A stretch of DNA of 64,000 nucleotides, from the NCBI GenBank assembly GCA_963693365.1, contig CAVNZM010000002.1, positions 16,649,615 to 16,713,614 of the forward strand, written 5' to 3'. Positions 40,701-43,700 of the stretch are shown one piece after another; positions within the stretch are counted from its first letter, which is position 1; every line of letters begins with the position of its first letter. Source of the stretch: Amoebidium appalachense (lineage: Eukaryota > Protista > Ichthyosporea). The notes below the pieces were generated by a model. That model did not search any database, was not told the origin of the DNA, and saw only the letters and a list, made by a program, of their open reading frames with translations. The position numbers and the translations under genes are program-made.

Positions 40701-43700
40701 ACTGTGTGGAGACCGCTTTACTTCCATGCAACCGGGCATGGTTGCTCTGTGTCGTGCATCTGTAAGCACATACGCATTTTTCGCTGCACTGCATTAGTTT
40801 GCACACACATCTTCACCGTTTTGCTCACCTTGCTTGCACAAGCAACCCTGCTCGTCTTTGATCAAGACGGGTTGACCCGCCCCAGTTCAGTTGATGCTGC
40901 TGTCTGAGTTGGAGCGTCGTATATACGCGGGCTAAGGGGTCGAAACTCAGACGCAATTGATGACTTGGGTCCTCCCTGAGGATGGGCTCTGCTTATGACG
41001 CATACTGTGCACATGGCTGATGTTGCATACTTGAATGTTTGCCTTTGCATGGGTCATGCACCATGCTTCTCGTCGTGTATGCGTACTTCGTACCGTGTTC
41101 CGCATTTAACCCCCCCCCCCCCCTCCCCCCCCCTCCCCCCTCCCCCCCCCCTCCCGCCCCCCCACACACACAGAACCGCGTCGGACGTGACGTCGCTTCT
41201 CCCCGACCTCCCCTCACCGCTTGCACCCGAAGACACCGAAGACTTCACGGCCTGTGCCCTCCACTACTCCACACAGACCCCCTCATCCATTCGCCAGAGA
41301 GAACTCTCCTCGTTTCTGTTTGCAACAAACACAACGGCACGTGAAGACGGTCTCCCTCCCTCTGTCCTTTTGAGCATGTCCGAGCTGTGTCTCCCTGTTA
41401 CGGCTACAGAGGTGTGCATGCAGCAGGCAAAGGCAAAAAAGAACGCCGCAGCCACGATCCTCTCGCAATCTTCCTCACCCGATCGATTCAAGTTTTTCGT
41501 TATCGACGTGCGCCCCTTATCCCAGTTTCAGTCCGGGCGGCTACCAACGGCATTCCACATGGCGGCGGACATGATTTTCGACCAACCAGAACAGTTCAGA
41601 GAGGTGGTTCAAACGCTGCAGATGATCGATGGGGACCACCTGTGCTTCTACGGGGCTGGGCCGGAGGATGCCGGGCTACGCACGGTGCTCAGTTTCTTTC
41701 TGCAGCGGGAGTTCCGCACCATCAGCTATGTGCGGGGGGGGTACGAGGCAATACACACCCTGCACAACCAGGTAGGGGCCTCTCTTATGAGGTTTGTGAT
41801 GGTGGTGTTGGGGTGTGTTTGCGGAGGGGGGGGGGGGGGGGGGGGGGGAGGGGTGATTCTTTCTGTTTTTGACATTGTGTTTTGTGAATTGAGGGTGTGG
41901 GTGTGGGTGTGTGGGTGTGTGTGTGGGGGGGGGGGGGGGGGGGGGGGGGGGGGGGGGGGCAGAAACAAGTTCGTTGAGGTGTGGAGCTGGGTGGCATGGA
42001 GGTGTGAGTGGTGTTCTCTTCTCCTTGTGGTCTCCCCACCCCCTTCCCATTCCCCCCCCTCCCCCCCCCCCCCCCCCCCCCTCCACCCCCCCCCCCCCTT
42101 CCCCATCACCTGCACCCCCGTAAGCTTCAGCAAACAATGACTTACCCGACACAAGCTCACACACTCATCGGCAAGTGCACGTCAGCAATCACTGTGCATG
42201 TGTACACTTAACATTGCATTCCTCTGACAAAACATGCACGGCATATATTCTGTCAGTGTAGGGGGAGGAGGGGGGGGGTCCTCCGTCCTTCCCTCTCACC
42301 ATCCACCCACCCACCCACCCACCCATTACACCCCGTTCCAATGTAGTGTCCGCTCTGACAGTGTGTCCCTATTCACTTGCACACACACACACACACACAC
42401 ACACGTGCACACACACACACACACACACACACACACACACACACATACGCACACACACATACGCACACACACACACACACATACATACACACACACACAC
42501 ACACACACACAGGGCATGGTGGAGCTTACCGATCACAACAAGCTCACGTGCCACGTGTGCTCTCCTCCCCCTCCCACCCCCACACCTGCCCCTGCCGCAT
42601 CCTCCAAGCAATCGTCCAAGGACCAACAATCGGGCCAGAATTCCGGGCCGGGCCGGCCCAGTTTGGCCCGACTCACATCACGTGATTCTGGTGGTGCGCA
42701 AGTGGGAGGAGATAACGCACCATCCCCAGCGGCGGAAAGCGGCGCGGCGAGGTTTTGGCGGCGTGTTTCAAATTTAACCCCTGCTAATTCGTGGAATTTG
42801 GAGAAGGAAAAGAACACGGACGATAAAACGACGGAAAACGATGGAAATGAAGACAAGGGGAAAACGCAAGCGCCAAAGGAGAAAGAACCAACGAAGGAAC
42901 AAACGGAGAACGGGCCATCGCCAGCACCACACACAGAGGCAGCAGGTGGAGGGGGCACGTGGTTCAATACGTTTGCAAAACGGACAGAGGCAATGATTCA
43001 AAAGGGGAAAGATGCAATTGAAAAAATGCAAAAGGAGAAGGAATTGGAAGCACAGGCAGCAAAAGCGGCGGCATTACCACCGCGTAGAAACTCGGGAAGG
43101 AAAAAATCGACGGATAGTTCTGACGGGCGTGCTGCAGCAAACAGAAACGTGTTTGGGATTGGGGACTCTGACGAGGAGAGAGGGAGTGAGGGGGAGGAGG
43201 GTGGTGGGTCCCAGGAGAGGAAAGCATCGCTGCCAAGATCCACAGCACCTAGTGCAGACATACCCCGACAGGTAGGAATTATCTCCTCACCGTTCCTCCC
43301 CGTTTTTGAATGTGTAGTTCGTTTTCTGCAACACATTCTTACCCCCCCCCCCCCTCCCCTCCCGTTGGCCTTTTGCATGATGGCGCCCTCTGTGCTGCCC
43401 TGCGGTCTTCATTGCGTCCCCCCCCCCCCCCCCCCTTTTTTTTTTTTTTTGGGGGGGGGGGGGGGGGGTTGTATGTTTGTAAATGTGTGTGTGTGTGTGT
43501 GTGCAGGGGGGGGGGGGGGGGGGGGGGGGGGGGGGGGGGCTTCATAGACGGCAAAAGGATGGGATGGACAGCCACGGAGGAGTGGACATGTGGTTGGATG
43601 GGTGGGTTGGAAGGGGGGGATGGGTATCATCATGTAGGGGGGGGGGGGAGGGGAGGGGGGAGTGGAGCGGCGTGGTAGAGGGGATAGGCGTGCATGCATG

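Follow-up and report, generated by a model that had tools for sequence, protein, structure and literature searches.

A hammerhead core in non-circular S-G-C order, probably opened by extra helices, in a likely Penelope-like repeat of Amoebidium appalachense

Results

The locus and its repeat copies

The window analysed here is a 64,000-nucleotide stretch of contig CAVNZM010000002.1 (assembly GCA_963693365.1) of Amoebidium appalachense, an intron-rich eukaryote. A TBC1D23 gene with TBC, rhodanese and C-terminal domains occupies positions 37609-44889, and three copies of a non-coding repeat lie in the sense strand of one of its introns; TBC1D23 domains were found on both sides of the copy at 40666..41117, the best database hits of the gene pieces standing at 32-36% (5 and 1 proteins). 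Elsewhere, an EMC7 exon lies at 534-842 on the minus strand (E 2.5e-08), and there are weak plus-strand matches to ribosomal L10 (about 4100-4280) and to a DEDD exonuclease (about 17920-18050). Tandem repeats at 13981-14241, 19002-19310, 19644-20169 and 5868-6283 comprise minisatellites of 32, 32/96 and 23 bp and a 210-bp tandem duplication. A DIRS-like element on the minus strand (45800-58200) carries a reverse transcriptase (57157-58128, Pfam RVT_1) and short split repeats (45859/46382 and 46293/58067); its frame 46528-47490 has no Pfam match and resembles a tyrosine recombinase by eye. This element is interrupted by a Gypsy element, whose LTRs (48546-49259 and 56179-56904) are 98% identical.

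The non-coding repeat occurs in two subfamilies, a and b, which are alike at 121 of 170 positions (Table 1). All seven copies in the window, at five loci, are on the plus strand, a bias that is not significant (C-runs of at least 10 number 93 in the window, G-runs of that length 61); four have a full hammerhead core and three are cut short from the 5' side. The copies end alike, in GCATT(C/T)AA and a C-run, and start at varying points, each behind a C-run. C-runs thus flank all seven copies on both sides, where 9.6% of window positions are equally C-rich and some of the C-run on the 3' side could be the element's own sequence. Partial tandems are formed by 40516-40665 with 40666-41117 and by 6328-6563 with 6569-6724, and the end-to-start joint (41113 to 40662) was seen in three of four sequencing runs. 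Subfamily a copies extend upstream of 33783 in other contigs. In two deep DNA runs 9956 and 13836 contigs were placed on b, and 8763 and 9201 on a; these are contig counts and not copy numbers, and both subfamilies are therefore large families. The b unit starts (40666-40678) with a pyrimidine tract and CAG, resembling a splice acceptor; Penelope-like elements (PLEs) are reported to have an intron in the 5' UTR that spans the pseudo-LTR. One loose end in run X1 shows, behind the 3' end, a different element that shares the first 13 letters of the b unit.

Table 1. Features of the repeat copies and of the hammerhead motif (window positions)
Feature	Positions	Strand	Remarks
Subfamily a copy	5357..5471	+	Block C and 3' end only
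Subfamily b copy	6328..6563	+	Truncation falls exactly on the stem II 5' strand; 5' parts of X and Y missing
Subfamily a copy, 5'-truncated	6569..6724	+	Immediately follows the 6328 b copy; of the blocks, has only G and C
Subfamily a copy, full motif	33771..34127	+	U17 at 33959; private letters at 33899, 33937, 33982, 34014-15
Bulged-A hairpin	33780..33805	+	Common to the 3' UTR start of four Chlamys consensi; fold and by-eye match
Subfamily b copy, 5'-truncated, full motif	39058..39458	+	Rare A at 39286 breaks one upstream stem II pair
Subfamily b copy, 5'-truncated	40516..40665	+	Directly upstream of the 40666 unit; partial tandem, pseudo-LTR layout; CUGAGGA block only
Subfamily b unit, 452 nt, non-coding	40666..41117	+	Ends in GCATT(C/T)AA, then C-run; in TBC1D23 intron
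Helix X, 5' strands	40837..40848	+	X2 40837-44 (pairs 40990-97); X1 40846-48 (pairs 40984-86)
Extra hairpin Y	40850..40872	+	9 bp, 5-nt loop, abuts G10.1; predicted fold; conserved in subfamily a
Proposed stem II 5' strand	40874..40878	+	GACCC, G10.1 = 40874; 5 Watson-Crick pairs with 40937-41
Rod, 5' strand below stem III	40880..40901	+	Lowest 8 bp (40880-87 with 40962-69) form the 'I' helix capping stems I and II
Block S	40902..40914	+	Stem III 5' strand 40902-09; U17 40910, with predicted cleavage 3' of GUU; 40911-14, strand of stem I
Perfect 10-nt palindrome	40918..40927	+	In the stem I-stem II linker
Block G	40937..40952	+	Stem II 3' strand 40937-41; GAAA 40942-45; stem III 3' strand 40945-52
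Block C	40972..40982	+	Stem I strand 40972-75; CUGAGGA 40976-82
Helix X, 3' strands	40984..40997	+	40984-86 and 40990-97; overlap the stem II strand 40985-89 of the sequence-only reading

Affiliation of the carrier

An earlier sequence-only reading of this DNA had recognised the hammerhead core within a repeat and had overlooked the element that carries it. We consider this carrier to be, likely, a high-copy Penelope-like retroelement of the Naiad/Chlamys clade: across the seven copies it shows the common 3' end, 5' truncation, partial tandems and absence of poly(A) that are hallmarks of PLEs, together with the insertion into (C)n/(CA)n that is typical of Chlamys. Neither a GIY-YIG/CxC/RT reading frame nor any other Penelope-like protein was found among the 107 window frames scanned with Pfam, and membership therefore rests on this layout.

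Naiad and Chlamys elements show 5' truncation and partial tandems, and Chlamys elements insert into (C)n and (CA)n and come with short non-autonomous units (PMC8557442). A further tie is the hairpin at 33780-33805, which by eye is alike at 22 of 26 letters to Chlamys-3_cInc, with differing pairs in the upper stem; its counterparts in the available consensi (Chlamys-2_cRei, Chlamys-3_cInc and two others) follow immediately after the stop codon. It is a candidate binding site for the element's protein. Subfamily a is tied to Chlamys by this 3'-UTR hairpin, and subfamily b is a 452-nt non-coding unit.

Retrozyme-like or SINE-like mobilisation by an LTR, DIRS or LINE retrotransposon would accord with the Gypsy and DIRS-like elements in the window, with the lack of a PLE protein among its frames, and with a 452-nt tandem unit close in size to non-LTR retrozymes. 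We nevertheless hold it to be quite improbable: LTRs, a poly(A) tail and visible target duplications are missing from the repeat, while the C-run targets, the AACCC-type end, the partial tandems and the Chlamys hairpin indicate a PLE, and animal retrozymes have themselves been argued to be PLE-derived (bioRxiv 10.64898/2026.07.22.740005). Non-LTR retrozymes are tandem units that each carry a type I hammerhead and give circular RNA, and the hammerhead of our repeat is not of type I.

The hammerhead core

A complete hammerhead core was present in all four full copies, as the sequence-only reading had claimed and with U17, G12 and C3 exactly where it had placed them (40910/40942/40976, 39258/39290/39324, 6364/6396/6430 and 33959/33987/34021). 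Each has C3 U4 G5 A6 N7 G8 A9, G12 A13 A14, the A15.1-U16.1 pair and a position 17 that is not G. The order is cleavage site, GAAA, CUGAGGA (S, G, C), and not the cyclic C, G, S order of types I, II and III, again as had been read. Stem III has 8 bp and one U-G pair in subfamily b, and 13 bp with three G-U pairs in a. Stem I has 4 bp in b and only 3 bp in a, with one double change from A-U to G-C, bearing out the covariation proposed for it. All three stems adjoin the core, including G10.1-C11.1, the choice of the strand that completes stem II being our interpretation. All core letters, stems I and III and the layout of the repeat can be read directly from the DNA.

A descriptor of type SGC, following the drawing of the sequence-only reading, matched exactly the four full copies on the plus strand and nothing on the minus strand of the window. 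It matched dinucleotide shuffles of the element 0 times in 20000 (b) and once in 20000 (a), and 26 (b) and 20 (a) times in 20000 when the core letters were held; both this descriptor and the one given below were composed after the motif had been seen. CUGANGA and GAAA in canonical order with a stem II of at least 3 bp occurred on neither strand of the whole window. There was no hammerhead among the best 150 of 168 Rfam matches at E<=1, those listed being low-complexity miRNA-type matches below the gathering score. Exact pattern scans for the motif found no locus in either metagenome or viral contigs. TGATGA...CTGA was also weighed as a box C/D or K-turn motif, a reading discarded by eye because flanking stems are lacking and the motif is broken in copy 6328.

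Between a and b, 13 of 13 core letters are identical, as are 70 of 88 paired and 38 of 69 other columns, a descriptive comparison in which all but three core letters sit inside longer conserved blocks. Assembled contigs from four runs mapped to b showed no variant of 2% or more in the core; on a, C3 and U4 varied at 2-4% in one of the four. These variant tables carry no linkage between positions. Contig depth in run X19 (possibly RNA) dips near 40900-40915 in b, but not at the equivalent site of a; contig depth cannot rank parts of the element, and no conclusion is drawn from the dip.

That short motifs assembled by chance in a GC-rich repeat is extremely unlikely: stems I and II are indeed short, but the shuffles, the double changes in stems I and III and in the rod (from the four-row alignment), and the recurrence of the motif in the available Naiad consensi (see below) all speak against it.

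Which strand completes stem II

In the sequence-only reading, stem II was formed with 40985-89 after a 2-nt insertion behind A9. Such a stem can be drawn, with three G-C and two G-U pairs in b and 4 bp in a; it is probably wrong, and the stronger strand upstream, at 40874-78, is probably right. The upstream strand gives -11.2 kcal/mol in b, versus -7.6 for the other, and -10.8 versus -5.6 in a (with the strand of copy 6569). At 33982 the population-major letter is A (about 95%, with G at 4-6% of depth in the three runs X1, X4 and X19), and both letters pair with T33928. With the major letter, the upstream stem has 6 Watson-Crick pairs in a and covaries, C-G in b versus U-A in a, while the fifth pair of the other stem becomes a mismatch in a. 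The upstream stem is also compatible with the predicted outer helices, and the predicted fold of copy 39243 leaves its strand free. Opening the predicted fold costs 10.4-11.0 for the split-core model, against 19.0 regained, and 14.2-14.3 against 15.4 for stem II at 40985-89, pseudoknot loop costs being ignored in both.

An ordinary type-SGC hammerhead, with stem II at 40985-89 and the upstream helices merely peripheral, fits all four full copies in the window. On these alone every pair of this stem forms in the alignment, copy 39243 having A-U in place of G-U, whereas the upstream stem is broken in that copy; insertions of 1-2 nt after CUGANGA are known (PMC10085705). But two of its four or five pairs are G-U and it has no double change, it excludes helix X1, and opening costs 3-4 kcal/mol more in b. 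The letter behind GAGTC in copy E, which had been offered in its support, is absent among variants of 2% or more in four runs, and is thus a rare or private change. Furthermore, the upstream strand is the only stem II available in nine of ten Naiad relatives read by eye from the available consensi, Naiad_Plae alone also permitting an offset pairing after A9. A stem II strand within 2 nt of A9, as in type SGC, can thus be drawn here, yet it has a stronger, covarying competitor, and we regard the ordinary type-SGC reading as unlikely.

A split-core descriptor with the upstream strand matched once in the window, and in none of 20000 shuffles of each element (0 and 1 in 20000 with the core fixed). 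It finds only one of the three copies that possess the upstream part; the misses trace to letters of low population frequency (39286, below 2%; 33899, about 0.1%). In the whole split-core model 3 of 45 pairs show double changes, a level that 5 of 500 shuffles reach; this statistic is descriptive only, because the alignment has four related rows (the four full cores, from two subfamilies).

Predicted extra helices and rod, and palindromes

Helix X, hairpin Y and the rod together make up the predicted nested fold of copy 39243 (z -3.0); the a copy folds with z -2.85 and a different outer fold. Pair probabilities in helix X are 0.95-1.0 (X2) and 0.8 (X1) in copy 39243, and 0.5-0.66 in the 40666..41117 copy, which has a private C at 40839. 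After A9 a U-U opposition stands in helix X, as in the available Naiad-2_Movir consensus. In copy 33945 (a) hairpin Y is absent from the predicted fold (probability at most 0.03), and this copy gains almost nothing on balance. CUGAGGA can be buried in a strong local hairpin, a caveat that the sequence-only reading had rightly raised.

From its lowest part through stem III the rod has 27 bp in b, with bulges of 1-2 nt, and about 22 bp in a; one double change, A-U to U-G, separates the subfamilies. Melting the middle of the rod costs 8.4 kcal/mol in b and 0.3 in a, and melting the whole lower rod 17.6 and 8.4. At the place that is equivalent to the palindrome in the b linker, subfamily a has a different perfect 10-nt palindrome (33965-33974); in both subfamilies these could be a hairpin or a dimer contact.

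The same wiring, read by eye, in Naiad consensi

Naiads were reported to be without canonical hammerheads, the available text and files of Craig et al. 2021 (PMC8557442) having only the labels 'HHR_core' and 'HHR_half_core'. By eye, and not by computation, we found the split-core S-G-C wiring in at least 10 of the 54 published Naiad consensi, of which about 7 are independent: Bfor (weak, with a 2-bp stem I), Amil, Aacu, Anas, Naiad-2_Movir, Plae, Obim, Ovul and two without visible names. In each, the strand before GAAA pairs over 5-6 bp with a strand upstream of the cleavage site, a hairpin Y abuts G10.1 on its 5' side, and helix X forms between the letters that follow A9 and those immediately ahead of Y. 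Stem sequences are unrelated from case to case while the wiring is the same, and the core sits in the 3' UTR; the rods, by eye, are nearly continuous and varied in length. The survey covered those motif places of the PMC8557442 supplement that were in view (60 of 62 CTGATGA, 25 of 25 CTGAGGA, 30 of 43 CTGAAGA and 23 of 23 CTGACGA), misses motifs split at line ends, and its counts exclude several 3'-UTR matches (spider and ostracod, parts 17-19) that were not assignable by eye. Type-CSG hammerheads with an 'I' helix were seen in at least 6 of the 54 consensi, likewise by eye (Naiad-1, -2 and -3_Nbra and three without visible names, from the nematode part, File S5 parts 13-16).

Our repeat shares with the described Naiads the split-core wiring, 5' truncation, partial tandems and microsatellite targets; it differs in that Naiads were described from animals, with (TA)n targets, and in that no Naiad-type protein was found in the window. 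With Chlamys and its non-autonomous partners such as MRC1 it shares (C)n/(CA)n targets, AAC-C-run ends, head-to-tail short non-coding units and the 3'-UTR hairpin, but we saw no permuted hammerhead in the available green-algal consensi, canonical type I being given only for Chara and spike mosses (all PMC8557442).

Discussion

Relation to published hammerheads

The sequence-only reading had taken the order of the three blocks to be a new topology, but it has already been published as type SGC. From metatranscriptomes, and from no known organism's genome, Eckert et al. 2023 (PMC10085705) predicted 583 SGC examples, five of which cleave at 0.007-0.19 per minute; they also gave two CSG examples and one GCS, and all three forms were shown to cleave. 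Our motif has the S-G-C order and the pseudoknotted stems I and II of HRIMA-1 and its variants, and likewise an 'I' helix that bridges stems I and II on their other sides; those authors too found direct joining to stem III hard to fit. Their scheme, however, takes CUGANGA and its neighbouring stem strands as contiguous, and block C is uninterrupted in type SGC, whereas here the 5' strand of stem II likely lies upstream, with X and Y between A9 and G10.1. The linker between stems I and II is about 20 nt here, versus typically 3 in type SGC. All six permutations described so far retain the A9-G10.1 link, which the split core would break.

Like the type I hammerheads of PLE pseudo-LTRs and non-LTR retrozymes (PMC6765202; PMC11167929; bioRxiv 10.64898/2026.07.22.740005), ours sits in the terminal repeat of a PLE-type element; those are circularly permuted with a tiny stem III, while ours has a non-circular order and a long stem III rod. 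We found no description of the split-core wiring, or of permuted PLE hammerheads, in the literature that was searched, which mostly excluded subscription papers; the available parts of PMC13159263, PMC13725137 and PMC10162972 do not describe this wiring, and PMC13725137 cites reports of hammerheads 'containing additional helices', one being its ref. 13. Both the split-core wiring and permuted hammerheads in Naiads are thus apparently unpublished. The window's contribution is a probable split core in a family that targets C-runs and carries a Chlamys-type hairpin, together with population data that tell the two stem II options apart.

Proposed mechanism

Thus the idea of a non-circular hammerhead core that standard descriptors miss survives from the sequence-only reading, its new topology does not, its stem II probably does not, and we think it reasonably probable that a complete S-G-C core, in a repeat of a likely Naiad/Chlamys-clade PLE, is a split-core hammerhead with stem II completed by the upstream strand, a predicted cut 3' of GUU at 40910, and probable action as a two-copy complex. 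A9 would leave the core into helix X, X would stack on hairpin Y, and Y would lead into G10.1; a four-way junction would thereby bring together A9, X, Y and stem II, with the RNA ends exiting through X.

With linkers of 0-2 nt, the 22-27 bp rod would adjoin stem III at its top and the far ends of stems I and II at its base. In hammerhead geometry, at 2.8 Å per base pair (the figure on which the argument rests, rather than on a model), the two ends of such a rod lie on opposite sides of the core, and a single molecule would therefore have to melt mid-rod; in subfamily a this costs so little (0.3 kcal/mol) that a monomer may suffice. In an antiparallel pair the rod top of one copy would meet the rod base of the other, whatever the rod's length, and partial-tandem transcripts would supply the two copies. 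We slightly favour such cleavage between copies, an idea that the sequence-only reading had also raised, over that by a monomer, because the antiparallel dimer fits any rod length, Naiad rods vary, and PLE hammerheads are reported to cleave as dimers or to need the protein of their element (PMC6765202; PMC11167929; bioRxiv 10.64898/2026.07.22.740005). The ribozyme may trim or circularise read-through and tandem transcripts, possibly helped by the element's protein, and subfamily b would depend on an enzyme supplied by a partner that is autonomous.

It may instead be that the structure is real and conserved but cuts negligibly or not at all, serving the element's reverse transcriptase as a template or protein-binding structure, or being a hammerhead relic in a recently amplified repeat. 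The weak stem I of subfamily a, the competing hairpin and the geometric strain would all be in keeping with this, as would the sense-strand position of the three intronic copies; recent amplification could account for two-thirds of the invariance, and the hammerhead of one PLE was dispensable for insertion in vitro, with no RNA-seq ends at its site (PMC11167929). However, every catalytic letter is kept across the subfamilies and the distant Naiads available to us while the stems turn over, and examples of all three non-circular forms do cleave (PMC10085705); we regard a non-cutting structure as rather unlikely.

We suggest, tentatively and at somewhat less than even confidence, that the split-core cleaving structure is a seventh natural wiring, in which a four-way junction opens the core between A9 and G10.1 and which acts as a domain-swapped dimer, and that it is the ancestral ribozyme of the Naiad/Chlamys clade, extended here from animal Naiads to a C-run-targeting, Chlamys-like family; the 'missing' hammerheads of that clade would then have been missed only by the descriptors. 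Two additional helices interrupting the core would account for the earlier view that related Penelope-like transposons have no hammerhead.

Significance

The motif yields a 170-nt construct with sharp predictions, which would offer a new place for inserting an aptamer or for splitting a hammerhead, and a handle on what PLE hammerheads do. If the split core is real, the CUGANGA block need not run straight into stem II. Non-circularly permuted ribozymes would shift from obscure metatranscriptome RNAs to high-copy residents of eukaryotic chromosomes, and the published statement that a major retroelement clade lacks hammerheads would be overturned.
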